DNA of 44,166 bases from Nanobdellota archaeon (GTDB lineage: Archaea > Nanobdellota > Nanobdellia > Pacearchaeales > GW2011-AR1): NCBI GenBank assembly GCA_039714095.1, contig JBDLJZ010000003.1, positions 1 to 44,166 of the forward strand, in the 5' to 3' direction. Shown in pieces: positions 4,415-35,696 of this stretch. The notes below the pieces were generated by a model. It was not told the origin of the DNA and searched no databases. It saw only the letters and a list, made by a program, of their open reading frames with translations. Numbering within the stretch: position 1 is the stretch's first letter; each line of letters opens with the position of its first letter. The position numbers were made by a program, and so were the translations under genes.

Positions 4415-4466
4415 CAAATTCAAAAATCTTATAAACTTATGAATCTACATAATAATAATTTAAGTC

Positions 4467-4492
4467 CCCAGTATGACTTCGGGAATGCTGGG
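4467..4492 (+). promoter_or_regulatory. UUCG-loop hairpin in the 5' leader of the NYN gene
   Basis: CCCAGTAT-GAC-TTCG-GGA-ATGCTGGG lies between a TATA-like TTATAAA (4429) and the ATG at 4519. Confidence 0.65.
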
Positions 4493-4518
4493 TTTCCTTT
4501 TCTTTTGGGGGTTATACA

Positions 4519-5172
4519 ATGCCCAAAAAAGTGATTGTTTTTGTTGATGCAAATAATTGGTACCATAATGTAAAAAATTTGATAACTCCAAGCGAAGTAG
4601 ATATTAAAAAATTAGCAGAATTTCTTTGTAAAATTAAAAACTTTGAGTTAATAGATATTTATTGGTATGCTTCAAAACCAAGTATTCAAGACGGAGAAAA
4701 GATGTATTATTCTCATTTGTCATTTTTGAATCATTTAGAAAAAAGCGGAATTAAAATATTTTCAAGAAAATTACAAAGATTATCAAATAAAGAAATAAAA
4801 AAACAAAAATCTCAAAAAATAGATAGTTTAGATTTGTGTAAATCTTGCAAACCATTAATTGAATCTGTTTTTTTAGATTTGGCAGATTTAAAGAAAAATG
4901 AGAAGGGAGTTGATGTTTGGTGTGCAATTGATATGATTGATAAATCTTGCATTGAAAATAATTGTGATGCTTGCATTTTAATTTCGGGCGATGCAGATTT
5001 TGTCCCAGCATTAAATTTGATAAAAAAGAAAAATAAAGATATTTTAGTAGCGAGTAGTCCATTTGGATTTTCAAAAGAATTAAGAGATAATTTTGAGTAT
5101 TTTATTTTAAAAAAAGAAACTCTTATGAAGTGTTTAAGGCAATATAAAAATAATAAGAAAAATAAAAAATGA
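4519..5172 (+). CDS. NYN domain (LabA/DUF88, PIN-like) nuclease
   Basis: VFVDANN, EKGVD and ISGDADF acidic motifs. Confidence 0.9.
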   Translation: MPKKVIVFVDANNWYHNVKNLITPSEVDIKKLAEFLCKIKNFELIDIYWYASKPSIQDGEKMYYSHLSFLNHLEKSGIKIFSRKLQRLSNKEIKKQKSQKIDSLDLCKSCKPLIESVFLDLADLKKNEKGVDVWCAIDMIDKSCIENNCDACILISGDADFVPALNLIKKKNKDILVASSPFGFSKELRDNFEYFILKKETLMKCLRQYKNNKKNKK

Positions 5173-6002
5173 CTAACATATCAACCACAACAAAAAACAC
5201 CTGGTGTCCTGGATGTTTTAATTTCCAAATCTTCGCAGGAGTAAAAAGATTCCTTGAAGAAGAAATAGATTCAGGAAAAGACAAAGACGATTTTGCAATT
5301 GTTACAGGAATTGGATGTCACGCAAAAATGTTTGATTATTTAAACATAAATGGAATTAATTCTCTACACGGAAGGGTTTTGCCAACATGCTTGGGATTAA
5401 AAGTTGGAAATCCAAATTTAAATGTAATAGGTTTTTCAGGGGATGGAGATGCATATGCAGAAGGAATAGCACATACTGTTCACGCTGCAAGATACAATTC
5501 AGATTTTACTTATGTAATCCATAATAATCAAGTTTTCGCATTAACTTTAGGAGAACCAACCCCCACAACTGAATTAGGATTCAAAGATAAAACAACACCT
5601 TTTGGAGTAAATATAAATCCTCTAAACCCTCTAAAATTAATGCTTGCATCAGGCGCAACTTTTGTTGCAAGAGTTTTTGCCGACATAAACCAAGTTAAAG
5701 AAGTTCTAAAAGAAGCACAAAAACACAAAGGATTTTCATTTGTAGAAATAATCCAACCCTGCATTGTTTTTCACAATGACAAAGGTTATAGGGAAAAAAT
5801 TTATAGATTAGAGGATGATGACCACGATAAAACAAGTTTTGAAGAGGCTTGGAGAAAAGCAGACGAATTTAATTATAACACTGTAACTAAAATTCCAGTG
5901 GGGATTTTTTATCAAAAAGAAGCCGAGACTTTTGAGGATAAATTCGCAATGTTAAAAAAGTTCCAAGAAGATAAAACAAGTTGGAAAGATATTAAACGAT
6001 GA
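5169..6002 (+). CDS. korB: 2-oxoacid:ferredoxin oxidoreductase beta subunit
   Basis: WCPGC, GIGC, LHGR and TPP-binding GDGD...NN motifs. Confidence 0.93.
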   Translation: MTNISTTTKNTWCPGCFNFQIFAGVKRFLEEEIDSGKDKDDFAIVTGIGCHAKMFDYLNINGINSLHGRVLPTCLGLKVGNPNLNVIGFSGDGDAYAEGIAHTVHAARYNSDFTYVIHNNQVFALTLGEPTPTTELGFKDKTTPFGVNINPLNPLKLMLASGATFVARVFADINQVKEVLKEAQKHKGFSFVEIIQPCIVFHNDKGYREKIYRLEDDDHDKTSFEEAWRKADEFNYNTVTKIPVGIFYQKEAETFEDKFAMLKKFQEDKTSWKDIKR

Positions 6003-6065
6003 TTCTAAAAAAAACAAACATTTATAAATATTATTTAAATAATACTTTTAGAATATTAAAATAAT

Positions 6066-6362
6066 ATGGAGCCTTCAAAGATAATAGATAACTTAGAAAC
6101 AAAGAAAATATCTCTTAACATAGATGAGAGTATCTTAAAGATGACAGATGAGTTTGCAGAAATTTTAAATACAAATAGAACACAAGTTCTCTCTGCAGTT
6201 ATTCCAGCAGGAATAAAATCTCAAGTAAATTATAATATAAAAACTTGGGGGAAATTAAAGAAAGATAAAAATTATCAAGCAAAAAAAGAAAAGATAAACA
6301 ACCTCATTAGTAAAAATAAAACTTTCAAGGATAAGTGGAATTTGGATTTAATTCCTCAGTAA
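6066..6362 (+). CDS. small protein, possible ribbon-helix-helix DNA-binding domain
   Basis: KKISLNIDESILKMTDEFAE...NRTQVL resembles the CopG/RHH pattern; TATA-like sequence upstream. Confidence 0.5.
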   Translation: MEPSKIIDNLETKKISLNIDESILKMTDEFAEILNTNRTQVLSAVIPAGIKSQVNYNIKTWGKLKKDKNYQAKKEKINNLISKNKTFKDKWNLDLIPQ

Positions 6363-6980
6363 TCTCAATTCCCAAACAAACAACTCCTCAAAAAATAATT
6401 TTTTCTTTGCCAAGATTTCTATTTCATATCCTTTAAAATCAATTCCTTGTGTCAAAGAGCTTGTAAGCAAAAAAATCTTTCCATTTTCTTTCAAATATTT
6501 TTTTGCATCTTGCAAGAATTTATTTATTAACTCACTTCCTTTTTTTCCACCTGTTGTTGCTAATTTTGAATTTTCAGGTTCGTTTTTATCTTCAGGCAAA
6601 TAAGGAGGATTAAAAATAATAACATCAAAACGAGGAAACCCCTTGTTTTCCTCGTGCTCCTTTCTCGAAGCATTGAAGGGTGGCATCTTCTTGTGCAATC
6701 CGATGGATACCTCACAGTTGCTTCCTTCAACATTTTCAAATAAATTTGACACAAAACAATTAACTTCAAGTTCATTACATTTTTTAACAGCTTCAGAATT
6801 TATATCACAACAAAAAATATTTTCTTTTTTTGCACCCAATTCTAAAATATTTTTAATTTGAATTCCACTTCCACAACCAATTTCTAAAAATGTTCCAAGA
6901 ATATTTTCCTGAGTTATTTGTTTTTTCAATACATTCGCTAGTAAGTAAGAATCTTCTGCAGGTTCATAAATTTTTAACAT
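6348..6980 (-). CDS. HemK/Mtq2-family SAM methyltransferase with an in-frame insertion
   Basis: YEPAEDS, LEIGCGSG and FNPPY motifs; extra ~31 aa (GSNCEV...KGFPR) before FDVIIFNPPY. Confidence 0.88.
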   Translation of the reverse strand: MLKIYEPAEDSYLLANVLKKQITQENILGTFLEIGCGSGIQIKNILELGAKKENIFCCDINSEAVKKCNELEVNCFVSNLFENVEGSNCEVSIGLHKKMPPFNASRKEHEENKGFPRFDVIIFNPPYLPEDKNEPENSKLATTGGKKGSELINKFLQDAKKYLKENGKIFLLTSSLTQGIDFKGYEIEILAKKKLFFEELFVWELRLLRN

Positions 6981-7333
6981 TAGAAAATTTTATCCTTGAA
7001 TATAAAAAGACCAAATAAAATCCCAAAAAGAATAATTAAAATACCAATCAACAAAATAATTAATCCGATATTTTTCTTTAAAGATTTTGTAGCTTGAACA
7101 GTTTTTGGTTTTAATGGTTTAGCTTGATATTTTTTTTCAAGGGTTTGTGATTTTTCAACAACTTGTTTAGATTCTACAGGCTTGCCTCGCTGTTCATTAA
7201 AAACAATCTGCGTTGCTTCTTCAATTTCTTTTTTATCATAACCTGCATTGTAAAAACTTTGCATAGCATCTTTTAAACTTGACTTGTGCGCTATAGCTAT
7301 CCTAAGTCCTCCAAGAATTGACTCATTTACCAT
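6980..7333 (-). CDS. hypothetical protein with a C-terminal TM helix
   Basis: 117-aa ORF with a hydrophobic C-terminus; its stop overlaps the methyltransferase start. Confidence 0.75.
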   Translation of the reverse strand: MVNESILGGLRIAIAHKSSLKDAMQSFYNAGYDKKEIEEATQIVFNEQRGKPVESKQVVEKSQTLEKKYQAKPLKPKTVQATKSLKKNIGLIILLIGILIILFGILFGLFIFKDKIF

Positions 7334-7367
7334 AAATAATTTAAGAATTTAGAATTTAAAAAATATC

Positions 7368-8702
7368 TCAAAATTTCAAAACTTTTCCATTAGAACTCAA
7401 ATGAGATGTCTCGCCAAACTTATATCCAAATTCTGAAGCCAATTCAATAAATGGTGTTTCTTGTTCTAAAGATCCATGAGCTGGAATAACATGTTCTGGT
7501 TTTACTAATTCAATTAAATCTCGTAAATCTTCACGACTTCCATGCCCATGAACATGAACATTTGTTTGTAACTTAACTCCCATATTTCTTAATTTTTTAT
7601 CTAATCTTTCACGAAGCATTTGATTTGGTTGAACAGGAATAACACTTGAAGAAAAAATCAAATTATCTCCTTGTCTAAATTTAAACGGAGTTTCTCCCTT
7701 AACAATTCTATCCAATATTGAACCTTTTTCTGCTTGATGCCCTGTACAAACAACCAAATATTTTCCTCTTTCTTTTTCTATTCTTGCTAAAAAAGAATTT
7801 ATCTGTCTACGATATTTAATTAATTTAACTTTATTTTTGAAAGGACATTTCCCAACACTAATCGCACTATTTACATATTTATTCAAACTCCTTCCTAAAA
7901 AAATAATTTGTCTATTAGTTTTTTGAGCAAATTCCACAATATTTTTTAATCTTTCAATATGAGAAGAAAATGTTGTGACAAAAAGTGCCTTATCTTTTCC
8001 TCGTGCTTTTGAAAATGCTTCCTCCAATAAATGTTTTGCAATCGCCTCTCCACCAGGTTTTTTCTCAGTTCCAGAATAAAGAGCGTCTGCAACTAAAACT
8101 TTTACACCTTTTTTACTCAATTCTTTCATACGTTTATAATTAGGAGGATTACCCATTGTTGGATAATTATCAAACTTAAAATCTAACCCATAGAAAAAAA
8201 TTCCATCTTTTGTATGAAGAGCAATAAAAAAACACTGAATTGTTGAATGTGTTACATGAATAAATTCAACTTTCATATCTTTACTAATTTTATGAATAGA
8301 ATTATCTTGTACAGTTTTTTTCACATTTTTTATATTTATTTTATCATCTTCTAAAATTGAATCAATTACAGCCATTGTAAAAGGAGAAGCCATAATAGTT
8401 GCTTTTGGATATCTATGTGAAATATATGGAATTGCACCAATGTGATCTAAATGAGCATGCCCAATAACAATCGCCTTAACCTTATCTCTCCAACCCAATT
8501 TATCTAAAATTAAATCATTTGGAATAGCACCCGCATTCCTGAGTTTTCTCTCAGTATATTGTTGAAAAACCTCATTCTCTTGCAACTCAATAACAGAAGG
8601 CAAATGAAAACCAGCATCAAAAATAACAACATCTTCACCAACCTTAACAGCAGTCATATTCTTCCCAACTTCTTCATAACCTCCAACCGTGCATACTTCC
8701 AT
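7368..8702 (-). CDS. rnj: ribonuclease J (beta-CASP metallo-beta-lactamase)
   Basis: GGYEEVGKNM, HAHLDHIG, HVHGH and PAHG motifs. Confidence 0.9.
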   Translation of the reverse strand: MEVCTVGGYEEVGKNMTAVKVGEDVVIFDAGFHLPSVIELQENEVFQQYTERKLRNAGAIPNDLILDKLGWRDKVKAIVIGHAHLDHIGAIPYISHRYPKATIMASPFTMAVIDSILEDDKINIKNVKKTVQDNSIHKISKDMKVEFIHVTHSTIQCFFIALHTKDGIFFYGLDFKFDNYPTMGNPPNYKRMKELSKKGVKVLVADALYSGTEKKPGGEAIAKHLLEEAFSKARGKDKALFVTTFSSHIERLKNIVEFAQKTNRQIIFLGRSLNKYVNSAISVGKCPFKNKVKLIKYRRQINSFLARIEKERGKYLVVCTGHQAEKGSILDRIVKGETPFKFRQGDNLIFSSSVIPVQPNQMLRERLDKKLRNMGVKLQTNVHVHGHGSREDLRDLIELVKPEHVIPAHGSLEQETPFIELASEFGYKFGETSHLSSNGKVLKF

Positions 8703-8812
8703 TCAAAACAAAATCAAATCAAGTTTAAAAATGTTTTAGAATTTTTATAATCTAAAATAATAAAGATACAAATCTTAGAAAGGTTTAAAAAATTCTTTTT
8801 ATTATAAAATTT

Positions 8813-9772
8813 ATGAGAAGGGTGATAGGGATAGGCTTTTTAGTTTTTATTTTTTGTTTGTCATTTATTTCTTCAGTAATAACAAAAGAAGAGATCAAAG
8901 AAAAATTGGAACAGATTAATATTAATGATTTTAAAATATCTAAAGGGGATTTTGATAAATCAGTTGTTATTATTGGAAAGGCACCTAACTATTATAAAGA
9001 AGTTGTTACAAAGAAAGGGGAAATAGTTTGGTATGACATTTGTTACAAGGATAAATGGTTGGAGCATTATGATGAAACTACCGATATGACGATAAGGACT
9101 GATTATAATATGTTTTTTAATTTTCTTAAAAAATTTTTTGGAATAAGTAGTCCATGTAAAAAAATGTTTGAGAGTAGATTATCCGAGTATTCCCTGACCC
9201 CTGAAAATTATTTAAGCTTGGATTATCCCTTTGAAGAAGATATTTTTGAAGGAAAAGAGGTAATAAAATTTAAAGGTGAATATCCTGGTTCTATTGGGGC
9301 TGGAGATCCTTTAGAAGATTTTGACGCATATTATGACAGAAAAAATTTAATATTAGTAGCCAAAAAATTTTATTGTAATAATAATGATTTTTCAAAGTGT
9401 ATTTACAAAAATGGAACTATTGAATATTTTAATGAAATCAATCAAGGAGTTCAGGAAAGTGATTTTACTTCTCCCGAAATAAGTGAAATGACTAAAATTT
9501 GTGAGAAGGATCTAGAAAAAATTTCTAATTTAACTTTGGCATTAAATAATATTGAAGAAAGTTTGTGGGTAATTCAAGGATTAACAGAAAAAGAAAGAGT
9601 GGATAAAAAAACTAAAGAAATGCGTAAATTGACAAGAGAAGAATATAATCTTTTTATAGATCTTAAGCTACAATTTTGGGAAGCTGAATGTAAAGAAAAA
9701 GATGAAATATCTATTTGTAGTTATGCACAATATCTTGAGAGAAAGGATAGATTTAATGAATGCAAATTTTGA
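8813..9772 (+). CDS. hypothetical secreted protein
   Basis: 319-aa ORF with an N-terminal signal peptide. Confidence 0.75.
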   Translation: MRRVIGIGFLVFIFCLSFISSVITKEEIKEKLEQININDFKISKGDFDKSVVIIGKAPNYYKEVVTKKGEIVWYDICYKDKWLEHYDETTDMTIRTDYNMFFNFLKKFFGISSPCKKMFESRLSEYSLTPENYLSLDYPFEEDIFEGKEVIKFKGEYPGSIGAGDPLEDFDAYYDRKNLILVAKKFYCNNNDFSKCIYKNGTIEYFNEINQGVQESDFTSPEISEMTKICEKDLEKISNLTLALNNIEESLWVIQGLTEKERVDKKTKEMRKLTREEYNLFIDLKLQFWEAECKEKDEISICSYAQYLERKDRFNECKF

Positions 9773-9838
9773 TAGGAAAAAATTATTCTATTTTAATTTT
9801 ATAAAAATTTTTAATAACTCCAATTCCCAATTTTTATT

Positions 9839-10117
9839 ATGAAAAAGAGGAATATCTATATATCTATTATTATTGTAGTAGTTTTAATAATTATTTATTT
9901 CTTTATTCCTAAATCTCCAGAAATTCAAGAATGCCAAATTGATTCTGATTGTGTCCCAGTTTCTTGCTGCCATCCAGATTCGTGTGTTGCAAAAGAACAA
10001 AAACCAAACTGCGAAGGAGTTTTATGTTCAATGAGTTGCGAAAGTTTACTTGACTGCGGTGCAGGTTCCTGCGGATGCAAAGAAAATAAATGCATAATTA
10101 TATCTTCAAATGAATAG
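9839..10117 (+). CDS. small Cys-rich membrane-anchored protein
   Basis: N-terminal TM helix followed by CQIDSDCVPVSCCHPDSC and further Cys residues. Confidence 0.8.
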   Translation: MKKRNIYISIIIVVVLIIIYFFIPKSPEIQECQIDSDCVPVSCCHPDSCVAKEQKPNCEGVLCSMSCESLLDCGAGSCGCKENKCIIISSNE

Positions 10118-12902
10118 AAAAATTCCAACCCTTTTTTTAATATTAATTTTAACTATTTTTATTGTTAATTCTTATCAAACAAAAATAACACAAGAAGTAA
10201 TAGATGAATTAGAAAATAATAATGATGTAAGGGTGATAGTTGAATTAAAAGAACCTTCATTAGAAAAAGGAATTATTTTTGTCATAAAAAAAACCTCAGA
10301 TGAAATAAAATCAGAAAAAGAACAAGCCAAACAAGAAATAATAAATCAGGTTAGCAATGAAAAAATAAAACATGTTTTTGATAAGAGTATTGCACTTGAA
10401 ATTTCTGAAAAAAAAATAAAACAATTAGAGAAAAATTCAAATATTAAGTCAATTAAAATTGATAAACCTTTTTTCGCGTTTTTGCAAGATTCTGTCCCAT
10501 TAATTAATGCAAGCACAACTTGGCCAATACAACTAAGCAGTTTTAATATCACTGGGATAAATGAAACAGTTTGTATAATTGATACAGGGGTTGATAGTTC
10601 TCATACAGATCTTCAAAATCAAGTGGTTGGAGAATATTGTTTTTGCTCTGCAACAGAGGGTGTGTATCCAAATTGTTGCCCAGATACAACAAATGAGGAT
10701 AATAACGCAACAGATAATAACGGGCACGGAACACATGTAGCAGGAATTGTTGCAGCATTTGGAGAAATTAATGGAGTTGCAATAGGAGCAAAAATTGCAA
10801 TGGTGAAAGTTTTAAATTCAACAGGTTCAGGATATAGTTCTGACACTGCCGCCGCAATTGAATGGTGTACAAATAATGTGGAGCTTTACAATATTTCAGT
10901 TATAAGTTTGAGTTTAGGAGGAGGCCAATATAATGATTATTGCGACGGAGAAGATGCTACAACCACTAATATAATAAATACAGCTGTTGGAAAAAATATT
11001 TCTGTAATTGTCGCAACAGGGAATATAGATGCGGCTTATCCAAATAAATTAGCGGGAATTGCTTCTCCAGCTTGCATAAAAAATTCAACAAGAATATCTG
11101 CAACAGATAAACTTGATAGTCCTGCTTTTTATGCATTTAGAAATAAAAATTTTACAGATATTTTTTTTGCTCCTGGAACAAGTATTAATTCAACTTCCAC
11201 AATTGCCCTTGATGGTTGTGATCTTTATGGAGATTATATGTCTTGTTCAGGAACCTCAATGTCTGCCCCCCATGTCGCAGGAGCTTTCGCAATAATAAGA
11301 CAATTCTTTAGATTACAAAATAACAAAATTCCGACTTCATCTGAAATTAAAATTCTACTAAATAACACAGGCAAATTAATAGACGACAGTTCTGGAAGCG
11401 GACTAAATTTTACAAGAATAGATGTTTACTCGGCTTTACTTTCAATTGATTCTTCACCTCCAACAGTAAATTTAATTTCCCCAGAAGATAATGAATTTAA
11501 TTTCACACAAAATTTAACTTTCAAATGTTCAGCAAATGATATCCTATTGTCAAATATAACACTCTATGTCTGGAATTCCACAAGCATTTATAATACTACT
11601 TTAAGAGATGTTGCTGGTACAAATGCAGAGGCAGAATTTAATTTAACAAATATTCCTGAAGACGAATACCAATGGAACTGTCTTGCCTATGACCATAATA
11701 ATAATTTTTCTTTTGCTTCTTCTAATTATACTCTAACTTTAAAAAAAATAAACACAATTCTAAATTCACCAACAAACAACACTTTCACAAATCAAGAAAC
11801 ACAAACATTCAACTGCTCTGCACAAACAATTTCTACAAAAGAATTAACAAACATAACTTTTTTTATTTGGAACTCCACAGAATTAATTTACAACACAACA
11901 CAAAATATCTCTGGCACACAAAATTCAACAACATTCCAGCACAATTTAACATCTCCAATAGAATATCATTGGAATTGCCTAACTTATAATAATGAATCCA
12001 ATTTTACTTTTGCAACAAATAATAATACTCTAACATATGACATCACTAAACCAAATGTAACATCAGTTCCAAATTTTCCAACAAACGAAACATCAAACTC
12101 TGCAACAAAATCTTTTTACTATAATGCAACTGATAATTACGGAATTAATAATTGCAGTCTGATTGTGGATAATGTAGTGAGTTTGACAGATTCTTTAATA
12201 AATATTTCTCTAACACAGAATTTTACTAAGATATTTTTACCTGGAACTTACAATTGGCAAATAAATTGCACAGACTTAGCAAATAATATAGAAAATTCTT
12301 CAACCCAGAGTTTTATAATCACTGCTCCAGCTGTAGTAACTTCTTCAGAGGGCAGAGGTAGTGGAAGCTCTTCAGTCAAAACATTTGTCGCATCGCCTGA
12401 ACAAACTTCAACAGGGTACACAAAAGAGTTAGCAAAAAATGACAAAATTAAATTTACAATTCCCAACGAATTATCTGAACAACACACAATCACAACAAAT
12501 TACGTAGGGATAGATTACGCAGACATAACCATTCAAAGCAATCCAATAAATTTTGTTTTATATATAGGAGAAGAAAAAAAATTAAACCTAACTTCCTCAG
12601 AATATTATAATCTTTATATTAAATTAAACTCAATAAAAAATTAAAAGGCGAATCTGACAATTCAAACTATTTATGAGCAGATGATTCAACCCTCCTCTGA
12701 AATTCTGAAAAATAAAACTATAACTGGAAAAACTATTGAAGAAAAAGATAAGCCAGAAATTTTCAAAACAGAATCTTTTAAGAATTTTTTAATCATAATA
12801 CTTATAATCCTTCTTGTCATTATATTAGTAATAAAAAAAAGAAAGAAAAGAAAGGAAGAAAAGAAAAATGAAACCCTTAAAACCAAGCGCACGAGAAAAT
12901 AA
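10110..12902 (+). CDS. S8 subtilisin-like protease with Ig-like repeats; one in-frame TAA (12642-12644) separates the C-terminal TM anchor
   Basis: Catalytic triad motifs IIDTG, HGTHVAG, SGTSMSAPHVAG. The frame continues after the TAA (KANLTIQTIYEQMIQ...) into ORF 12681-12902. Confidence 0.88.
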
Positions 12903-13227
12903 AAGATATCTTTTAGTAGAAGGAAAAAATCTTAAACAAAATATTGAAAAAGCAATTTTAGAATTTATAGGAGTTTTAGGAATGTCACAAGTTGGATTAA
13001 GTTTTATAGAAACACACTCACGAGTGTATACCCACAAGGGGCACGAGAACCTGCAAGCAGGCCCCGAAAAATCTTCAAATAAGATTTCTACAAAGGGTAA
13101 AAATAATTCTACAATAATTTGCATAAACCGAGAAATGGTTGATTCTGTTCGTGCATCACTTTGTGTCTTCCCCGATAAAATAGAAGTAAAAAAAGTTAGT
13201 GGGACTTTGAAAAGTTTAAGAAAATAA
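12868..13227 (+). CDS. pop5: RNase P protein Pop5/Rpp14 with an in-frame insertion
   Basis: PSARENKRYL and VSGTLKSLR ends; located upstream of psmA as in the archaeal exosome superoperon. Confidence 0.8.
   Translation: MKPLKPSARENKRYLLVEGKNLKQNIEKAILEFIGVLGMSQVGLSFIETHSRVYTHKGHENLQAGPEKSSNKISTKGKNNSTIICINREMVDSVRASLCVFPDKIEVKKVSGTLKSLRK
13012..13097 (+). repeat. composite palindromic element inserted in frame in pop5
   Basis: Hairpins ACACTC-AC-GAGTGT, CCTGC-AA-GCAGG and AAATCTT-CAAAT-AAGATTT; the 3' part matches 29067-29100. Confidence 0.75.
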
Positions 13228-13246
13228 TTTTTTAATTTTTAATAGT

Positions 13247-14290: not shown

Positions 14291-14349
14291 GTATCTAATT
14301 TAATATAAGTCTTTAAATTATTTATTCAGTTTCATCACCATTAAAAATC

Positions 14350-14388
14350 AAAAAGGTTTCAGGAACTTTGAAAAGTTTAAGAAAATAA
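14350..14388 (+). repeat. second copy of the pop5 3' end
   Basis: Encodes KKVSGTLKSLRK* like 13189-13227, with synonymous codon differences and a 24-bp exact core. Confidence 0.93.
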
Positions 14389-14424
14389 GTGAATATTTAA
14401 AAGGAGTGAGTCGTTTAGAGTTTT

Positions 14425-14922: not shown

Positions 14923-14934
14923 ATCTGTGAAATG

Positions 14935-16499: not shown

Positions 16500-16500
16500 A

Positions 16501-25233: not shown

Positions 25234-25242
25234 AATAATTAA

Positions 25243-26829: not shown

Positions 26830-26940
26830 ATTTAATTTTTGATTGTTGAACTTTTAAAAATTGCTGTTGTCCAATAATATATTTAATTAATTAAAATAAT
26901 CCACAAAAAGTTTTATAAACCATTTCTTCTCCAATTTCTT

Positions 26941-27807
26941 ATGACTAATAAAGAAAATAATACAAAAGAAAAAATAGAAATTAAAGAAGATATTCAAGAA
27001 GAATTTACTGAAGAATTAGAAAAAAAAGAAAATTCTAAAGAAGATAATGATTTAAAAAAAGCTGCTGAAAAAGAATCTTTAGCAACAGAAGAACCAAAAA
27101 AAGAATTATCTTTAGAAGAAAAAAAGAAAGCTCTTTTAGAAAAAGTAAAAAAACTAAAATCAAAAGTTGATGTTACTGAAACTTCTGAAGAATTAAAAGA
27201 GCAAGTTAAAATTAAGAAAAGGGATGATATGCTTATACCTTTAGATGAATATGTTAAAGCAGGAATTTATCTTGGAACAAAAGTCGTAACCCCTGACATG
27301 AAACCTTTTATTTACAGAAGAAGAGCAGACGGATTGGCAATTTTTAATACAGATTTAATTGACGAAAAAATCAAAGAAGCAATTGAATACTTGAATAAAT
27401 TTAATGCAGAAGACGTGGTTCTTGTTTGCAAAAGACAAGCAGGTTGGAAGGGAGCATTGATGTTTTCAGAATTAACAGGCATTAGAGTTTTCACAAAAAA
27501 ATATCCTGCAGGAATTTTAACAAACACAAATCTTGAAGATTTCTTTGAAAACGAACTAACAATTGTAACAGATTCATGGTTAGACAAAAACGCATTAAAC
27601 GATACACTAAATGTAAAGAAAAAAGTCTTGATGATTTGCGACACAAACAACTTTTCAAAAGGAGCAGACAAAGTGATAATTGGGAACAATAAGCATCACA
27701 AATCTTTAGGTGTAATATTTTATCTTTTAACAAGAGGATTTTGTAAAGTAAAAAAGATTGATGCGAAGATACCTGAGTTGGACTGGTGGGTAGAAGAGTC
27801 TAATTGA
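26941..27807 (+). CDS. rps2: 30S ribosomal protein S2 with a charged N-terminal extension
   Basis: YVKAGIYLGTK, MKPFIYRRRADGL, GILTN, CDTNN and GNNK motifs. Confidence 0.92.
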   Translation: MTNKENNTKEKIEIKEDIQEEFTEELEKKENSKEDNDLKKAAEKESLATEEPKKELSLEEKKKALLEKVKKLKSKVDVTETSEELKEQVKIKKRDDMLIPLDEYVKAGIYLGTKVVTPDMKPFIYRRRADGLAIFNTDLIDEKIKEAIEYLNKFNAEDVVLVCKRQAGWKGALMFSELTGIRVFTKKYPAGILTNTNLEDFFENELTIVTDSWLDKNALNDTLNVKKKVLMICDTNNFSKGADKVIIGNNKHHKSLGVIFYLLTRGFCKVKKIDAKIPELDWWVEESN

Positions 27808-27975
27808 TTTTGTTTCTTTTTGATTTATACTTCGTTATTTCCTTCCTCACATAGACAACTATGCTACTGAAGAAAAGTGCCTCGTCTAAACGCAAAAATA
27901 ATTCAAAATTTGGGAAAGAGTAAGAGAAAGAATAATTACAATAAGTTTTTATATAATAAATAATTTAAATTTTTA

Positions 27976-28368
27976 ATGGAAAAGCAGTATAAAAGTTTAG
28001 GTGAGTTGGTTAAAAAATCTGGAGTTATTGGAGCTGTGAGATACAAATTTCTTGAAATGAGAGATCGAAGTAAAGTTTTTAATCATATTTGCATGAATCC
28101 TTCACCCCAGCCTTTAATGACAACGGCGTATAATGGAAACTATGTTGCAGCTTGGGATGATATGGGAATACTTGTTTATTTTAATCCAAATCCAAATTAT
28201 CCCGAGGATGCTTATGGTTCAATTAAGTTAGGAAAAGATGGAACTTATTCTCTTGTAAAATTGACTGAAAAAGAGATTAATAAAAAAATTCCAATAAATT
28301 TTGCCAATAAAATTCATGCAATTGGTGGGACAGATCATTCTCGAACTAAAACTAATCAATCTTCATAA
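27976..28368 (+). CDS. hypothetical protein
   Basis: 130-aa ORF with a TATA-like TTTATATA upstream. Confidence 0.65.
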   Translation: MEKQYKSLGELVKKSGVIGAVRYKFLEMRDRSKVFNHICMNPSPQPLMTTAYNGNYVAAWDDMGILVYFNPNPNYPEDAYGSIKLGKDGTYSLVKLTEKEINKKIPINFANKIHAIGGTDHSRTKTNQSS

Positions 28369-28774
28369 ACAGCCAATTCTTTTTCTCACCACCAAGTTTA
28401 GCATTAACTAAAACATATTTCCCTTTCAATTTTTTTCCAAAAATTTCAAATTCAATTTTTTTGCCCTTAGTAAAAATATCTTTTTGGATATTTTTCTGGG
28501 TACGCCCTTGGGTGCTTAATTCATCATCAATCAGTTCATAAGTCCCTTTGTCCCAAATTTTTACTGTTCCTTTTCCATAACCCTCTTTAATTTCTCCTTC
28601 AAATTTCGCGTAACTAATTGGATGGTCCTCTACTTGAATAGCAAGTCGTTTAATCTTTTTTACCTTTGGTGGAACTTTTGGCAAAGCCCAACTTTTTAAA
28701 ACACCGTTCATCTCAAGACGTAAATCCCAATGCAAATGAGAAGCATTGTGCTCTTGAATTACATATTTTGGCAT
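28352..28774 (-). CDS. stand-alone LigD 3'-phosphoesterase domain with an in-frame insertion
   Basis: YVIQEH, HWDLRLE, VLKSWALPK, VEDHP, YGKGTVKIWDKG motifs. Confidence 0.9.
   Translation of the reverse strand: MPKYVIQEHNASHLHWDLRLEMNGVLKSWALPKVPPKVKKIKRLAIQVEDHPISYAKFEGEIKEGYGKGTVKIWDKGTYELIDDELSTQGRTQKNIQKDIFTKGKKIEFEIFGKKLKGKYVLVNAKLGGEKKNWLFMKID
28463..28515 (-). repeat. palindromic element inserted in frame in the LigD phosphoesterase gene
   Basis: GCACCCAAGGGCGTACCCAGAAAAATATCCAAAAAGATATTTTTACTAAGGGC aligns end to end with 29052-29101. Confidence 0.85.
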
Positions 28775-28927
28775 AAATAATTAAGTAAATTAAAATTTAT
28801 AAAATCTCCGTCGCCAAACTATAATTTTTCTAACCAAACATTTATATACCTAATTTTTCTGGATTAATTATTAACTAAGATGAGTGCCTTATTTAAATCA
28901 TGTTTAACCTTGAATTAAGGTATGATG

Positions 28928-28967
28928 CAGTAGCAGTCATAGTTGTAGTTCTAAAAAAATTATAATA
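28928..28967 (+). other. 5' arm of the 16S processing stem (pairs with ~30566-30604)
   Basis: CAGTAGCAGTCATAGTTGTAGTTC...ATTATAATA is imperfectly complementary to TATTATAAT..GAATTACAGTTATGCTGCTTTACTG. Confidence 0.7.
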
Positions 28968-29051
28968 CAGCCAATAGTTAGGATTTGTGTGAAGTGATTT
29001 GTTTTCTTATAGACAAATTGCGCAATAAAGAATTTTATTTTAATAATTTTC

Positions 29052-29101
29052 GCACCAAATGGTGTACCCTGAAAAATCTTGAAAAGATTTTTACTAAGGG
29101 C
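29052..29101 (+). repeat. palindromic element in the 16S leader
   Basis: GCACCAAATGGTGTACCCTGAAAAATCTTGAAAAGATTTTTACTAAGGGC; two hairpins. Confidence 0.85.
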
Positions 29102-29111
29102 AATATTGTTA

Positions 29112-30558
29112 AATCCAGTTGATCCTGCTGGCGGCTGCGGCTTTCTGGTTTGCAGTTAGACATGCAAGTTTTTTTGTTGATTCTTCGGAATTAGTAAAAG
29201 GCGAACTGCTCAGTAACACGTAGCTAACCTACCCTTAAGTCAAGGATAACCTCGGGAAACTGAGGGTAATACTTGATAGGAGATTTACCCTGGAATGATG
29301 AATCTCTCAAATTAGAGCTTAAGGATGGGGCTGCGGCGGATTAGGTTGTTGGCGGGGTAATAGCCCACCAAGCCAAAGATCCGTAAGGGCTCTTAGCGGA
29401 GAGGCCCTGAGAGGGAATCTGAGATACTATTCCCAGCCCCACGGGGTGCAGCAGTTAGGAATAATCTACAATGCGCGTAAGCGTGATAGTTTGAGCCAGA
29501 GTGCTTTTCAATTAGAAAAGCTTTTGTGAAATGTAAAAAGTTTCACGAATAAGGACTGGGTAAGACGAGTGCCAGCCGCCGCGGTAATACTCGCGGTCCG
29601 AGTCGCAGCCATTTTTATTGGGTCTAAAACATCCGTAGCTTGTTTAGTAAGTCTCTTGTGAAATTTTATATCTCAAATATAAAGCGTGCAAGAGATACTA
29701 CTAAGCTAGAGACTGGGAGACGTAAGAAGTATGTTTAAAGTAGCGGTTAAATGTGTTAATCTTAAACAGACTAACAAGAGCGAAGGCATCTTACGAGAAC
29801 AGTTCTGACAGTCAGGGATGAAGGCTAGGGGCGCAAATGGGATTAGATACCCCAGTAGTCCTAGCAGTAAACACTGCACACTAAACATCGGGACCTCTTC
29901 GTGAGGTTTCGGTGCTGAAGGGAAGCCGGAGAGTGTGCTACCTGGGAAGTATAGTCGCAAGGCCGAAACTTAAAGGAATTGGCGGGGAGACACTACAACG
30001 GGTGACGCGTGCGGTTCAATTTAACTACACACAGAAAATCTCACCAGGAGCGACAGCAGAATGAAGGTCAGTCTAAAGGGCTTACCTGACACGCTGAGAG
30101 GAGCTGCATGGCCGACGTCAGCCTGTGCCGTGAGGTGACCTGTTAAATCAGGTAACAGGCAAGACCCTAATGTATATTTATATTCTATATACAGATTGCC
30201 TTGGTAACGAGGATGAAAGTTAGGGCCACGTTAGGTCTGTATAGCCCGAATCCCCTGGGCAACACGCGCGCGTCAATGGTGAATACAACGAGATGCAACT
30301 CCGAAAGGAGAAGCCAATCTCTTAAAGTTCATCCCAGTTTAGATTGAGGTTTGTAACTCAGCCTCATGACAATGGAATCCGTAGTAATCGTTTGTCATCA
30401 ACGAACGGTGAATATGTCACTGTCTCTTGCACACACTGCCCGTCAAACCAACCGAGTTTATTTATGATGAAACTTTTAGAAGGAGAATCTTGGGTAGACA
30501 AGGTAGGTTAAGTCGTCACAAGGTATCTGTAGGGGAACCTGCAGATGGATCACCTCCT
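29112..30558 (+). rRNA. rrs: 16S rRNA (archaeal, divergent)
   Basis: AATCCAGTTGATCCTGC start, GTGCCAGCCGCCGCGGTAA, ATTAGATACCC, and 3' end GATCACCTCCT. Confidence 0.97.
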
Positions 30559-30649
30559 ATATTATATTATTATAATCTTGAATTACAGTTATGCTGCTTT
30601 ACTGCTACAGAAAAAATTTAAAAACCGACGAGGGTTAGAAATAATCATT

Positions 30650-30720
30650 GGGCCCATAGTCTAATGGTAGAATACTTCCCTTGCACGGAAGAGACCCGTG
30701 TTCGATTCACGGTGGGTCCA
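30650..30720 (+). tRNA. tRNA-Ala(TGC)
   Basis: Acceptor stem GGGCCCA/TGGGTCC with G3-U70, anticodon arm CTTCC-CTTGCAC-GGAAG, T-loop TTCGATT; lies in the 16S-23S spacer. Confidence 0.95.
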
Positions 30721-30784
30721 TATAATTTTTTCTGTAAAACTTAGTTAATAACATTCAAACAAAATAAAATGGAAACAATAGAAG

Positions 30785-31111
30785 ATGACCTCAGTTACAG
30801 ACAAATTAAACTTAGTGGAACAAGTAGTTTCAGAAGAAGATGTTCCGAGCATCATACGCACACATTATAAGAGAGTTAAAAAAGAAACAAATGGAAATTT
30901 TGTTTCAGCAATGTATGCTATAACTGATGGGAAAATAAAATGGGTATCTGTTCAAAGGAATGGATGTCCAATAACAATTACTGTAAAAAGTAATTATCTA
31001 AAGGAATTTGATAGTATTATTGGGAATGCAAATTATGTTGAAAGAAAATTTGTAGAAAATATTTCAAATGGAGATTTTGAAAAATATAAACTATTTAAAT
31101 TCACAAAATAA
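30785..31111 (+). CDS. hypothetical protein inside the 16S-23S spacer
   Basis: 108-aa ORF in AT-rich DNA with ordinary protein composition. Confidence 0.55.
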   Translation: MTSVTDKLNLVEQVVSEEDVPSIIRTHYKRVKKETNGNFVSAMYAITDGKIKWVSVQRNGCPITITVKSNYLKEFDSIIGNANYVERKFVENISNGDFEKYKLFKFTK

Positions 31112-31332
31112 TCACAAATCATATTCACTCATAATCTTAAGGTTGTGAACGTGAAACCGACGAGAAATTGTCTTGGTTCCAAAAGAAATTTCGGAATCAA
31201 TTTGAGAAATACAAAACACACTAGGTGTTTCGTAACTTCGCGATTTTCGGCAGAGGCAATTAAAAAAATCGCCTCACCGCAAAGGAAGGGAAGTTTAAAA
31301 GAAACCGCTTAGGTGTCTTTTATATTCAATGA

Positions 31333-31353
31333 AATAAGCAGGAGAAGAAATTT
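31333..31353 (+). other. 5' arm of the 23S processing stem (pairs with ~34229-34249)
   Basis: AGCAGGAGAAGAAAT is the exact reverse complement of ATTTCTTCTCCTGCT. Confidence 0.8.
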
Positions 31354-31401
31354 CCACACACAAAACTAAATTTTATAATTTAGATGGCGTATGTAAAAAA
31401 G

Positions 31402-34226
<2,825 letters not shown>

Positions 34227-34279
34227 CCGAGATTTCTTCTCCTGCTTGTTTGTTGTTATTTTTATTTTTAGAAGAGAAA

Positions 34280-34603
34280 TTATTTAAAAAATTGAATTGT
34301 TAAAAAAATTGCTATTCCCATAGATATTATTGATAAAATATATGAACCAATACCCATTACACTTAATTTATATTTTTCACAAGTATAATGACGATGTTTG
34401 AAAATACCCATTTCTTGAGTTATCGACATCCATGTTCCAAAGAAAAAAGTTAATGAAGATAAAGCATATAGAGAGATTATTTGATTATTTAGAATTCTTA
34501 TGGGCACAGTCAAAGAAGTTAGAAAAATAATAAAACTTAAAACTGTTCCAGCCTGATAAAATCTATCAAGTCTAATTTTATCAAGTAATTCTTTTGTAAC
34601 CAT
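34280..34603 (-). CDS. hypothetical membrane protein
   Basis: 107-aa ORF with 3 hydrophobic segments. Confidence 0.65.
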   Translation of the reverse strand: MVTKELLDKIRLDRFYQAGTVLSFIIFLTSLTVPIRILNNQIISLYALSSLTFFFGTWMSITQEMGIFKHRHYTCEKYKLSVMGIGSYILSIISMGIAIFLTIQFFK

Positions 34604-34605
34604 TT

Positions 34606-34791
34606 TTATTTTCCTCCGCCTAAAAACATAACAATAATCATTAAAGAAAATAATCCTCCTAATAAAATTCCAAAGCTAAATCCAAAAGCTCCAATAAACC
34701 CTTTCATGATCTCAGAAAAAATTCCTGCTCCTGCTAAAACAAGAATAATAAATCCTCCAACAAATAAACTAATTATTTCTTTTTCTTTCAT
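34606..34791 (-). CDS. small 2-TM protein
   Basis: 61 aa, Gly-rich and hydrophobic; tightly spaced to the next gene. Confidence 0.6.
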   Translation of the reverse strand: MKEKEIISLFVGGFIILVLAGAGIFSEIMKGFIGAFGFSFGILLGGLFSLMIIVMFLGGGK

Positions 34792-34847
34792 ATATTTCTA
34801 ACAACTCTTTTTTATTTAAATTTAATTATACTTAAATCTAAATCTCC

Positions 34848-35438
34848 TCAACCCAAAATCCCTCTAAACCAATTAAAAATTTTTTCAACTATATTTTCTT
34901 CAACTTTTTCCTCTTCTTTTGTTTCTGCAGGAGTTGCTGGCGCACTTAATTTTTCTATCTTTTCATTAAATTGCTTTTCTAATTCTTCTTTTTGTTTTTT
35001 CATTTCTTCTTCAATTCTTTTCTCAACTTCTCCACTTTGATTTATGCAAATTCCGTTCAAACAAAAATTTGTCAAGCATTCAAAATTATTATTACATTCA
35101 TTTCCTATTTCTGATTGATTAATAAAAAAATCTTTACGAGTGAAATGCGGTCTTCCATTTGGATAATAAACAACTCCTTCCGCCACACAATATTTTTTAT
35201 TTATAATATAACCATAAGGATAACATTTTTTATCAAGAAAACAACCAGAATTTTTACAATCTGTTTCTTTTTGAAATTCTTTATTTGGTTGAATTAAAAC
35301 ACTTTCTCCAGTTGGTGCGCCACTTCCCACAGTTACTTTGCTTTCTAAATAATTCCCAATAGAATTTGCTGGAATATCCGCTTGAATAAAAGACAAACTA
35401 ATCATCAAAATTGCTACGCAAACAATTGTTAATTTCAT
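34848..35438 (-). CDS. secreted Cys-rich hypothetical protein
   Basis: Signal peptide, CNNNFECLTNFCLNGIC, amphipathic C-terminus KIFNWFRGILG. Confidence 0.75.
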   Translation of the reverse strand: MKLTIVCVAILMISLSFIQADIPANSIGNYLESKVTVGSGAPTGESVLIQPNKEFQKETDCKNSGCFLDKKCYPYGYIINKKYCVAEGVVYYPNGRPHFTRKDFFINQSEIGNECNNNFECLTNFCLNGICINQSGEVEKRIEEEMKKQKEELEKQFNEKIEKLSAPATPAETKEEEKVEENIVEKIFNWFRGILG

Positions 35439-35526
35439 GATTTTATTATAAATCTGGAACTTATAAAACTTCCTTCAACAAAAAACCATTTAAACCCCTA
35501 TTCCTAATAATAATAATAATCAAGTC

Positions 35527-35550
35527 CATGGGATCTTCACGGACCCCATG
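35527..35550 (+). promoter_or_regulatory. leader hairpin upstream of the NYN remnant
   Basis: CATGGGATC-TTCACG-GACCCCATG, preceded by AATAATAATCAAGTC (compare 4451-4466). Confidence 0.55.
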
Positions 35551-35564
35551 CTTTTTATTTTAAT

Positions 35565-35615
35565 ATGAAAAAGATTTCTATTTATATTGATGGAAGTAAT
35601 ATGTATTTTTCTTAA
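35565..35615 (+). pseudogene. 5' remnant of an NYN gene
   Basis: MKKISIYIDGSNMYFS* corresponds to the first NYN catalytic motif. Confidence 0.7.
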
Positions 35616-35672
35616 AAATAATAAACCATCAAATTTATAAATTAGGCATTATTAATATCTTCAACATGATCC

Positions 35673-35696
35673 CCAGTGATCCTTCGGGGTCGCTGG
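35673..35696 (+). promoter_or_regulatory. C(UUCG)G hairpin in an NYN leader
   Basis: CCAGTGATCC-TTCG-GGGTCGCTGG, a 10-bp stem with two G-U pairs. Confidence 0.7.

Follow-up and report, generated by a model that had tools for sequence, protein, structure and literature searches.

The question raised by this contig of a Nanobdellota archaeon is whether the GC-rich hairpin that lies in front of its NYN nuclease genes is an RNA element that belongs to these genes, and what it might do for them. In the window, that is, the entire 44,166-nt stretch of DNA analysed, the first-pass annotation described three NYN starts, each preceded by a TATA-like box, a GC-rich hairpin and a T-rich tract; all these elements are indeed present at all three sites, in each case on the plus strand and in the order BRE/TATA promoter, GC-rich hairpin, U-rich tract. 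At the first site, the predicted promoter (4421..4436, with the TATA box at ~4429-4436) yields, from promoter geometry, a predicted transcript start at ~4457-4459 and is followed by a type A hairpin at 4467..4492 (covariance-model match 4459-4504, 41.7 bits, E = 1.3e-7); the lower stem of this hairpin is 8 bp long, includes a U.G wobble and is topped by a G.A/A.G internal loop and then by a C(UUCG)G cap. The segment between this hairpin and the ATG (4493..4518) consists of a U-rich tract (4493-4506), a GGGGGT Shine-Dalgarno-like run (4507-4512) and a spacer. The second site comprises a predicted promoter at 35482..35495 (TATA ~35488-35495), a type D hairpin at 35527..35550 (match 35519-35562, 30.3 bits, E = 2.1e-4) and, directly 3' of it, a U-tract (35551-35564); this hairpin is not the terminator of the upstream neighbor because the latter (34848-35438) is encoded on the minus strand. 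At the third site, the predicted promoter (35627..35641, TATA ~35634-35641) forms the 5' edge of a second cassette that is placed on the stump of the first one, and the type B hairpin at 35673..35696 (match 35664-35709, 43 bits, E = 5.8e-8) contains a perfect 10-bp stem, a UUCG loop, a conserved 3' AUGA and a U-tract, with an equally good fold obtained in none of 200 shuffles (z = -3.47). Two sequence motifs had been proposed to be common to pairs of sites. One of these, TCCCCAGT...CTTCGGG...GCTGG, is found at sites 1 and 3 as described; the other is common to sites 1 and 2 in the form AATAATAAT(1-2 nt)AAGTCC but, given the one-base difference in spacing between these sites, the single-wildcard pattern AATAATAAT.AAGTCC originally given for it fits only site 2.

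Of the three NYN genes initially claimed, only that at 4519..5172 (plus strand, as are the other two) is intact. It encodes a 217-aa protein of clade A that matches PF01936 with E = 9.4e-19 and 68.8 bits, against a cut-off of 24.2. The open reading frame at 35565..35615 is a stump of 16 codons (MKKISIYIDGSNMYFS) that ends in TAA and shows an N-terminus resembling clade D genes (L022 and L024). The clade B gene at 35725..36305 is frameshifted: frame 1 (35725-35835, 36 codons) ends in TAG and the remainder lies in another frame (35829-36305), with the C-terminal half of the NYN domain still recognizable (PF01936 E = 3.1e-9; 37.9 bits for 36045-36305; match span 35940-36266). This frame break may represent a real pseudogene or an assembly error. 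Across the 757-kb genome, a profile search detects seven PF01936 matches on six contigs, all above the curated cut-off. In 34 NYN sequences, four acidic residues (D10, D132, D158 and D160) never vary, and a fifth, D138, shows conservation of at least 90%; these aspartates are predicted to form a PIN-like metal site, by the assignment given in the available part of PMC5499597. When six of the NYN proteins were compared with the PADLOC profile HEC-09, five matched over nearly the full profile length with E-values from 2.5e-12 (the window protein encoded at 4519-5172) to 7.2e-25, and the sixth (L033) with E = 3.4e-5. The candidate identity with the toxins ToxN, AbiQ, CptN or TenpN was rejected since the profile searches return NYN and HEC-09 and no other family.

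The evidence that the hairpin acts as RNA comes from a covariance model built on 34 NYN-associated hairpins. Some of the pairing and T-tract signal is built in, since a script that looks for hairpins selected the training set and the T-rich flank belongs to the model: 84.9% of cells are paired in the training hairpins compared with 63.4% after shuffling and at most 50% when the partner strand is slid, the corresponding values for 45 matches in public genomes (three of which repeat training rows) are 87.6% and 73.1%, and 26 of the 34 training rows contain a run of at least four T, as do 61 of 88 members, compared with 15% of controls. Double-sided changes in the training hairpins number 78 versus 27. 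On the sense strand of the NYN genes, G-U outnumbers A-C by 111 to 28, an excess that is expected of a folded sense-strand RNA and not of a DNA palindrome. Comparison of the sequences thus supports an RNA element on the sense strand of NYN whose structure is conserved and covaries. The consensus is a GC-rich hairpin of 24-34 nt with the lower stem CCCCRG...CYGGG. This stem contains a U.G wobble that is conserved and, in type A hairpins, also a G.A mismatch; its sequence, the wobble and the mismatch are kept across phyla, whereas the upper stem is free to vary. In some members, such as L013, L030 and L035, the U-tract is weak or absent. There is one hairpin per unit, and where two occur together (L028, L065, L066, L068 and clade E), they belong to different types. 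A search of the whole window against Rfam 15 at the gathering threshold returned only rRNAs and one tRNA, with no match to the hairpins, and in E-value mode up to 5, the seven NYN loci gave only a chance match to U12 (E = 2.5). The three hairpins of the window are copies of a previously undescribed structured RNA that corresponds to no Rfam family.

This RNA is predicted to be transcribed from its own canonical archaeal promoter. In a logo of 46 members anchored at the first paired base, the BRE occupies positions -45..-40 and the TATA box -38..-31. The view of the first-pass annotation that many other genes of this genome are leaderless was borne out, with the BRE/TATA matrix starting 35-40 nt before the ATG in 239 of the 522 strongly matching genes genome-wide. 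This peak at leaderless genes calibrates the start site, so that the predicted transcript start, judged from promoter position, falls upstream of the hairpin, which begins ~8-10 nt past it, rather than downstream, a placement that had been named as evidence against a transcribed leader.

The association of the hairpin with NYN genes is highly specific. A pattern scan for a GC hairpin with a T-rich tail on both strands of the 757 kb found 36 matches, six of them at NYN loci; an ORF of at least 60 aa starts within 45 nt downstream of five matches, and four of these five ORFs are of the NYN type. With the covariance model, seven matches in the same genome reach E <= 7e-4. Every one of them is at an NYN gene or stump, and one, on contig C22, is absent from the training set; the next best match has E = 0.48. 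Among 41 related genomes, NYN genes are patchy, multi-copy and often broken, being present in 21; the motif occurs in 18 genomes, all among these 21, and in the covariance-model search was absent from all 20 NYN-negative ones. By coordinates, 29 of the 37 matches in relatives adjoin an NYN gene. Of 79 loci in public genomes, some of them bacterial, 40 have the hairpin immediately before NYN, as do all 30 loci in the series L059-L089 that could be evaluated. Enrichment upstream of NYN compared with other genes, which had been proposed as a check, is accordingly found in the source genome, its relatives and the public loci. The stronger claim of a hairpin before every NYN gene holds at the window sites but not for two other NYN genes of this genome, on contigs C15 and C33, which have none upstream. 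Nor does the element accompany PF01936 genes in general: it is absent from single-copy NYN orthologues elsewhere in the phylum. The type of hairpin follows the clade of the NYN gene with seven label changes, the minimum possible, against 22.8 after shuffling, in agreement with the suggested co-inheritance of the two; this agreement may come from co-inheritance alone. In intact NYN genes of the hairpin-bearing clades, no case without a hairpin was seen. The hairpin is an obligate companion of one group of stand-alone, HEC-09-like PF01936 NYN genes.

The position of the hairpin relative to the gene is variable, with three layouts. In 44 of 64 loci, the hairpin-to-ATG spacer is at most 40 nt, so that the hairpin there is part of the NYN 5' UTR and a purely cis-acting role would suffice. 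Loci with a 48-51-nt spacer contain a second strong BRE/TATA positioned for a leaderless NYN mRNA, which makes the hairpin a separate upstream unit. In the third layout, the hairpin is convergent at the NYN 3' end, as in the C15 and C33 genes; in the clade that lacks upstream hairpins, all five intact NYN genes have such a convergent hairpin with its own promoter. The second-promoter and convergent loci are better explained by a small partner RNA than by a 5' UTR that acts purely in cis. The original proposal of a shared hairpin leader, a candidate autoregulatory substrate, attenuator or RNA antitoxin of NYN, therefore stands with respect to a conserved sense-strand RNA at NYN genes, but the term leader is too narrow given the separate and convergent units. 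Hairpins are also found beside stumps, frameshifted genes or no NYN gene at all: the window matches at 35519 and 35664, C22, L018, L038, L039, L051 and six orphans. The orphans precede, respectively, a ParE-type toxin operon, a VapB-like gene, a Bro-N gene, a tRNA, a gene of unknown function and nothing, and are as compatible with a portable promoter-leader as with an RNA partner.

Promoter, hairpin and NYN gene make up a compact cassette of ~0.75 kb that occupies variable genome slots. At the first window site, the cassette is framed by a direct repeat on the plus strand. The left copy (4362..4430, 69 nt), which abuts the cassette, is a duplicated 5' end of POR-beta with an ATG at 4364 and the first ~17 codons; the right copy (5167..5233) is the 5' end of the actual POR-beta gene (5169-6002). 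This gene encodes the TPP_enzyme_C and PFO_beta_C domains, and its ATG overlaps the stop codon of the NYN gene. The two copies are 91% identical over 69 nt, and the same MTNISTTTKNTWCPGCF start is read at both.

Several explanations can account for parts of these observations. The hairpin could be a purely cis-acting 5' leader that stabilizes the mRNA or throttles transcription or translation, with no role in trans and no recognition by NYN. The short spacers, into which a second promoter would not fit, the terminator-like combination of hairpin and U-tract, which in the bacterial Omnitrophota members L095 and L099 has the shape of a classic intrinsic terminator, and the presence of leaders on NYN genes in a mostly leaderless genome are all compatible with this possibility. 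Nevertheless, it leaves unexplained the convergent 3' units with their own promoter, the second-promoter loci and the intact orphan units, and a generic stabilizer or terminator does not need the cross-phylum conservation of the lower stem, the U.G wobble and the G.A mismatch; a leader of this kind is a tentative alternative, with perhaps a minority chance of being correct. It is unlikely that the hairpin is primarily a DNA-level element which, perhaps as ssDNA, marks a recombination or insertion site of moving cassettes, with any RNA function secondary. The insertion of the cassette at 4431-5166 into the POR operon with a 69-nt target duplication points in this direction, as do the cassettes located on older stumps or right behind another hairpin (35519 then 35664; L028, L065, L066, L068), the other genes that fill the two NYN slots of the window and the C6 and C29 slots in the same-genus genome G001, the three units that adjoin tRNA genes (C22, L014, L048) and the patchy, multi-copy, often broken state of NYN. 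Against it, neither a recombinase nor terminal inverted repeats nor cassette arrays were noticed beside the cassettes, the uninserted form was not found in the two stretches compared, only three weak NYN relatives were found on viral contigs, and the fixed promoter distance and U-tract speak for a transcribed element; moreover, the fidelity of hairpin to clade implies that the hairpin does not move independently of NYN. An integron attC site was considered and dropped, the cassettes being single and scattered over six contigs, with the hairpin 5' of the ORF in most.

A small GC-rich mobile hairpin repeat of the MITE or RPE kind, located before start codons by chance, finds some support in a ~110-nt repeat, present in ~40 copies in G001, that lies ~500 nt from the C6 NYN cassette. 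This explanation is largely refuted and has very little left in its favor, considering that seven of seven significant copies in the genome are at NYN loci and none in 20 NYN-negative genomes, that the promoter is at a fixed distance and that the hairpin tracks NYN clades. Finally, the hairpin RNA might be a substrate or cofactor in a cellular job of NYN, either matured by NYN or guiding it, rather than a brake. The tight pairing of hairpin and NYN gene in three layouts would suit such a role, and a bacterial CRISPR-associated NYN trims crRNA intermediates according to the available part of PMC11346440. A housekeeping gene would not be expected to show the patchy, multi-copy, often broken distribution of NYN (21 of 41 genomes) or its variable slots. 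In addition, the hairpin is missing from the conserved single-copy NYN orthologues of the phylum, and no similarity to rRNA was found; this option appears improbable.

Known systems offer partial parallels. In type III toxin-antitoxin systems (ToxIN, CptIN, TenpIN), one promoter serves a non-coding RNA gene and, immediately downstream, the gene of an endoribonuclease, an arrangement that the present pairs resemble, and a terminator-like hairpin between the two would set the RNA:protein ratio. By analogy, the present systems are likewise compact, patchy, multi-copy pairs in which the RNA outlives the decayed nuclease, with harm and neutralization putative here. In contrast to type III systems, the nuclease has an NYN/PIN-like fold rather than that of ToxN/AbiQ, the RNA is a single hairpin rather than a tandem array of 34-36-nt repeats, and one clade has its RNA unit at the 3' end of NYN, in convergent orientation. 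Another parallel is the autoregulatory stem-loop known from ribonuclease genes, as in the Escherichia coli rnc and rne leaders and in Regnase-1/ZC3H12A, an NYN/PIN-like nuclease that acts on a stem-loop in its own mRNA. The NYN hairpin seems analogous in being a conserved stem-loop in the predicted transcript of the nuclease itself, at the 5' end in most loci, but differs in also forming separate or convergent units, with a terminator-like U-tract. With intrinsic terminators and attenuators it shares a GC-rich stem and a U-run between promoter and ORF, whereas its lower stem is conserved in sequence and specific to one gene family across phyla; since a U-tract is enough for termination in archaea, conservation of the stem calls for a different explanation. 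By profile and acidic residues, the proteins are members of the LabA-like NYN family (PF01936/COG1432, structure 2QIP), for which the available portion of Matelska et al. 2017 (PMC5499597) lists the function as unknown and names no RNA partner. HEC-09, an NYN-domain candidate defence gene embedded in Hma systems, resembles them in a near end-to-end profile match and in being, as they are, a single gene wedged into other operons; no Hma system was noticed around the present genes, and the part of the source available (bioRxiv 10.1101/2024.01.29.577857) reports no RNA element for HEC-09/NYN.

Taken at a probability of about 0.5, the preferred reading, drawn from comparative sequence analysis, is that the hairpin is a dedicated regulatory RNA partner of NYN, an attenuator that would probably also bind NYN or act like an antitoxin. 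Most transcripts initiated at the cassette promoter would stop at the U-tract, and such attenuation would produce an excess of small hairpin RNA along with a trickle of NYN mRNA. The NYN protein would recognize the conserved lower stem, and the hairpin RNA could then serve as a feedback operator or as an antitoxin-like inhibitor of an otherwise non-specific single-strand RNase. A bacterial NYN is described as a non-specific Mn-dependent ssRNase in the accessible text of PMC11346440. The accessible text of bioRxiv 10.1101/2024.01.29.577857 reports one test in which HEC-09 gave no phage defence and, HEC-09 being the nearest PADLOC profile, this counts against the preferred reading. Altogether, the findings suggest an undescribed RNA-protein pair in which the RNA restrains a potentially harmful RNA-cutting enzyme.

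The three sites in the window at which a TATA-like box precedes a hairpin and a T-rich tract follows it (hairpins at 4467-4492, 35527-35550 and 35673-35696) all exist as described in the first-pass annotation; the last one has a perfect 10-bp stem and a UUCG loop (z = -3.5). The claim that each of them leads into a NYN gene holds only in part: the window has a single intact NYN gene, at 4519-5172 (PF01936, E = 9e-19), whereas the start at 35565 opens a stump of 16 codons and the gene starting at 35725 breaks off after 36 codons, its remainder being read in a different frame as far as 36305. Also in the window are the 16S-tRNA-Ala-23S operon (29112-34224) and a 1344-aa ORF (36367-40401) with a signal-like N-terminus, long acidic stretches, many Cys-rich repeats and no Pfam match. 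Comparison of the hairpin with the rRNA operon gives nothing beyond chance matches of 9-12 nt, and the possibility of an rRNA mimic was rejected on these grounds. The NYN-associated hairpin is a real and conserved feature, which confirms and extends the original observation; its function we infer.

The genome of the window (757 kb, 29% G+C, 59 contigs) contains seven NYN matches, five of which have the hairpin directly upstream, as does a NYN stump on contig C22. When both strands are scanned genome-wide for a GC hairpin with a T-rich tail, 36 matches are obtained, six of them at NYN loci; among the five matches that have an ORF of at least 60 aa within 45 nt downstream, four are of the NYN type. 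The covariance model built on 34 NYN-associated hairpins (hereafter R1) yields seven matches at E <= 7e-4 in this genome, every one at a NYN gene or stump, with the next best at E = 0.48. The scan and the model, which together bear out the predicted enrichment of the hairpin at NYN genes relative to other genes, replaced a comparison of the mean folding energy of 70-nt upstream regions; this comparison separated the NYN genes only in part because the crude ORF starts are often too far upstream.

The hairpins in the training alignment were taken from this genome and, in related genomes, from 32 NYN starts. In this alignment, 84.9% of the stem cells pair, compared to 63.4% in shuffles and at most 50% with slid partners, and there are 78 double-sided changes where 27 are expected; the training hairpins were chosen by a hairpin-finding script, so that the pairing figure is partly by construction. 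The R1 search in the genome of the window, in which the C22 copy from outside the training set is among the significant matches, removes the worry that this choice built in the pairing. Among 45 matches from public loci, pairing reaches 87.6% against 73.1%, in an alignment that is fitted to R1 and in which three rows repeat training sequences. On the NYN sense strand, the stem cells of 88 members include 727 Watson-Crick pairs, 111 G-U pairs and 28 A-C combinations, and the excess of G-U over A-C is expected for a folded transcript of the sense strand rather than for a DNA palindrome. The types distinguished among the hairpins are A, B, C, C', D and E, the last with two hairpins. Kept across phyla are the lower stem, a U.G wobble and, in type A, a G.A mismatch; the upper stem and the loop vary, with compensatory changes. 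In the maximum-likelihood tree of the 34 NYN proteins, each hairpin type corresponds to one clade, with seven label changes, the minimum, compared to 22.8 in shuffles. Several of these clades coexist within one genome and each spans several families. The agreement between types and clades shows stable co-inheritance; given that related proteins share labels, co-evolution is not proven by it. The covariation and the tree thus agree with the initial proposal of a conserved structured RNA co-inherited with NYN.

When 46 members are anchored on the first paired base, an A-rich, BRE-like block appears at -45 to -40 and a TATA box at -38 to -31. When the same promoter matrix is applied to all crude gene starts of the genome of the window, 522 genes have a strong match, and in 239 of them the match begins 35-40 nt ahead of the ATG. 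This sharp peak implies that most genes in this genome are leaderless, in line with what had been noted from the sequence, and that the NYN genes are unusual there in possessing a leader. The peak serves to calibrate the start of the hairpin RNA as well, which is predicted to lie about 8-10 nt upstream of the first stem base; this promoter geometry speaks against transcription starting beyond the hairpin. A search for RNA datasets covering the stretch examined listed none. A run of at least four T follows the stem in 26 of the 34 training rows. In the full set of 88 members, such a run is present in 61, compared to 15% of control windows, and a run of at least five in 36, compared to 5-7%, both excesses being partly by construction because R1 includes the flank. 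The U-run is missing in some members (L013, L030, L035). A terminator of the upstream gene was considered and rejected, given that the neighbor of the hairpin at 35527-35550 is divergent and that the promoter lies at a fixed distance in the 46 members.

Among 41 genomes of the same order, NYN genes are present in 21 and the R1 motif in 18, all of which are NYN-positive; none of the 20 NYN-negative genomes contains the motif. Of the 37 R1 matches in relatives, 29 adjoin a NYN match by coordinates (27 upstream on the same strand and two convergent), five of these on coordinates without inspection by eye; the remainder consists of one match before a visible NYN stump, six orphans and one AT-rich match that is probably false. 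In 79 public NYN loci drawn with an alignment of eight clade-A proteins, R1 finds 45 matches at E <= 1, of which 43, in 40 loci, are on the NYN strand just upstream; in L059-L089, all 30 evaluable loci have a match. According to the record labels, these matches include ones from Pace-, Woese-, Nano-, Iain- and Aenigmarchaeota, together with a Thermoplasmata bin. Bacterial matches at E <= 2e-4 come from Omnitrophota (L095, L099) and Planctomycetia (L093) bins, with weak ones in a Brocadiales bin (L123, E = 0.04), Armatimonadota (L101, E = 0.11) and Myxococcota (L120, E = 0.92). By eye, two such hairpins in tandem were recognized in Methanomicrobiales, WOR-3 and one further bacterial locus. A collection of viral contigs contains only three weak NYN relatives, with 28-38% identity over part of the protein.

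The hairpin is not present before every NYN gene, as initially supposed. In a phylum-wide sample of 150 genomes, NYN genes are found in 96 genomes and the motif in five, in four of these directly before a NYN gene, in a search that scored fewer candidates per genome. No consistent hairpin was seen in 18 inspected genes of the high-scoring, mostly single-copy 'QRVGVF' and 'INQSVAIL' NYN types, nor any hairpin in the inspected NYNs of the Dehalococcoidia type. Because these other types lack it, the hairpin is best described as a companion of a particular patchy, multi-copy NYN group; among the loci inspected, no intact NYN of the hairpin-bearing clades without a hairpin was seen. A NYN family of about 270 aa (starting with MRVIIFNDTQNF) that is found in four relatives (L040-L043 in G001, G012, G019 and G011) is preceded by a conserved hairpin of another kind, G-rich in its 5' arm and accompanied by a U-tract, which R1 does not detect.

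The pairing of this NYN group with a sense-strand RNA hairpin that has a dedicated predicted promoter and a U-rich tail is strict and comes in three layouts. In the leader layout, the stem ends at most 40 nt from the ATG (44 of 64 loci), leaving no room for another promoter. In the loci with spacers of 48-51 nt (L008, L009, L011, L059, L061), the hairpin is a separate upstream unit, and a second strong BRE/TATA is placed for a leaderless NYN mRNA. Finally, one NYN clade has no upstream hairpin; a type-A-like hairpin with its own BRE/TATA is instead encoded on the opposite strand, overlapping or abutting the NYN stop codon (contigs C15 and C33 of the genome of the window, L012, L015, L017), with weak R1 matches for two of these five loci.

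The compact cassettes of promoter, hairpin and NYN gene occupy variable slots. In the window, the cassette at about 4431-5166 is located between a POR alpha-type gene (2880-4367) and POR-beta (5169-6002) and is flanked by a 69-nt direct repeat (copies at 4362-4430 and 5167-5233) that corresponds to the beginning of POR-beta, some 17 codons; from the left copy, a frame of 56 codons runs through the hairpin. At the same junction, G001, a genome of the same genus, has a membrane-protein ORF (about 280 aa) that overlaps the neighboring genes with its start and its stop. For an uninserted POR form, no credible joint across the cassette was found in two DNA runs; a contig of 3893 nt from the probable source run spans 3886-6500 without differences and is not independent support. 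The slots at 35.5-36.3 kb and on contigs C6 and C29 contain unrelated genes in G001, the nearest NYN relatives in that genome (67-72% DNA identity) being on other contigs. On C29, synteny with G001 breaks at the NYN stop codon on one side and about 16 nt upstream of the BRE on the other. The slot with two NYN units in the window is occupied in G001 (L169, contig C62, 1472-2713) by a 413-aa ORF with a HPFEDGNSRTTR motif, presumably Fic-like. On C6, a repeat of about 110 nt (L005:2650-2760), with some 40 copies in G001 at 72-95% identity, is located about 500 nt from the NYN cassette, outside of it.

Stacking is seen in the window, with a type-B cassette on a type-D hairpin and the 16-codon stump, and in L028, L065, L066 and L068, where a type-A cassette comes straight after a type-B hairpin. 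It is common for a hairpin to stand beside a stump or a broken gene, or to have no NYN, which shows that the RNA unit outlives the decay of NYN. The orphan hairpins are followed variously by a ParE-type toxin operon, a VapB-like or a Bro-N gene, a tRNA gene, an ORF of unknown function, or nothing. Intact promoter-hairpin units are found before a 54-aa ORF and a ParE-family toxin gene (L052, G020 contig C4) and before a VapB/RHH-like antitoxin gene (L055, G019 contig C30); it looks as if other toxin-antitoxin cargo has replaced NYN behind the hairpin there. On C22 (L058, ~1800-2100), a type-B hairpin and ~35 N-terminal NYN codons are followed by a partial 5' copy of a tRNA gene and then by the tRNA's own promoter and the full gene. 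In three relatives (G016:C3, G017:C4, G019:C32), NYN genes are each interrupted by a single in-frame TAG and were taken as broken.

Four aspartates are invariant in the 34 NYN sequences. The nearest solved structure (2QIP) has no known function, and the function of PF01936 is given as unknown in a 2017 survey of PIN-like domains (PMC5499597). The nearest PADLOC profile is HEC-09, a NYN candidate embedded in Hma systems that gave no defense in the test reported for it (bioRxiv 10.1101/2024.01.29.577857). A CRISPR-associated bacterial NYN is described as a non-specific, Mn-dependent single-strand RNase (PMC11346440). In its presumed mode of action, the NYN-hairpin pair comes closest to type III toxin-antitoxin loci and to the autoregulatory leaders of RNases; its nuclease fold and its RNA architecture set it apart from the type III family sets, of which it is not a member.

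We favor, with a probability of roughly 0.5, a reading in which the promoter fires into a terminator-like hairpin, so that transcription would yield mostly a small hairpin RNA and only little NYN mRNA; the conserved lower stem would be recognized by a protein, most plausibly NYN itself, and the hairpin RNA would act as a feedback operator or an antitoxin-like inhibitor of a non-specific RNase. A leader acting purely in cis would fit the predominant layout, with the stem close to the ATG, but the separate upstream units and the convergent units remain unaccounted for, which makes this explanation rather unlikely. A role of the hairpin as a DNA-level site of the cassette, compatible with the stacking, is improbable. 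That the RNA is a substrate or cofactor of the nuclease seems less probable still. The idea of a dispersed repeat can be nearly dismissed considering that all significant R1 matches in the genome of the window are at NYN genes or stumps.

Beyond the favored reading of attenuation and feedback, a bolder extension, which we consider doubtful, is that NYN and its hairpin represent a new class of RNA-antitoxin (type III-like) selfish modules in DPANN archaea, some methanogens and several bacterial phyla, in which an RNA of about 35-45 nt neutralizes a non-specific NYN RNase and also marks the landing spot of the cassette. Such a landing spot would account for the stacking of hairpins, for the presence of NYN stumps and for insertions within operons.

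The NYN hairpin is an RNA family found neither in Rfam 15, with both the window and the NYN loci searched, nor in the full-text literature, where a search outside subscription journals found no description of a NYN-associated hairpin RNA. It is short, with clear rules of sequence and structure and natural compensatory variants. The cassettes, ~0.75 kb each, show that in ultra-small archaeal genomes a compact promoter-RNA-gene arrangement is a unit of gene flux. Considering that NYN proteins of PF01936 are widespread, a gene-specific RNA partner is the first concrete handle on the function and control of a large group. Should the RNA restrain the nuclease, the very short list of RNA-antitoxin systems would gain a PIN-like nuclease paired with a single-hairpin RNA, as an example common to archaea and bacteria.
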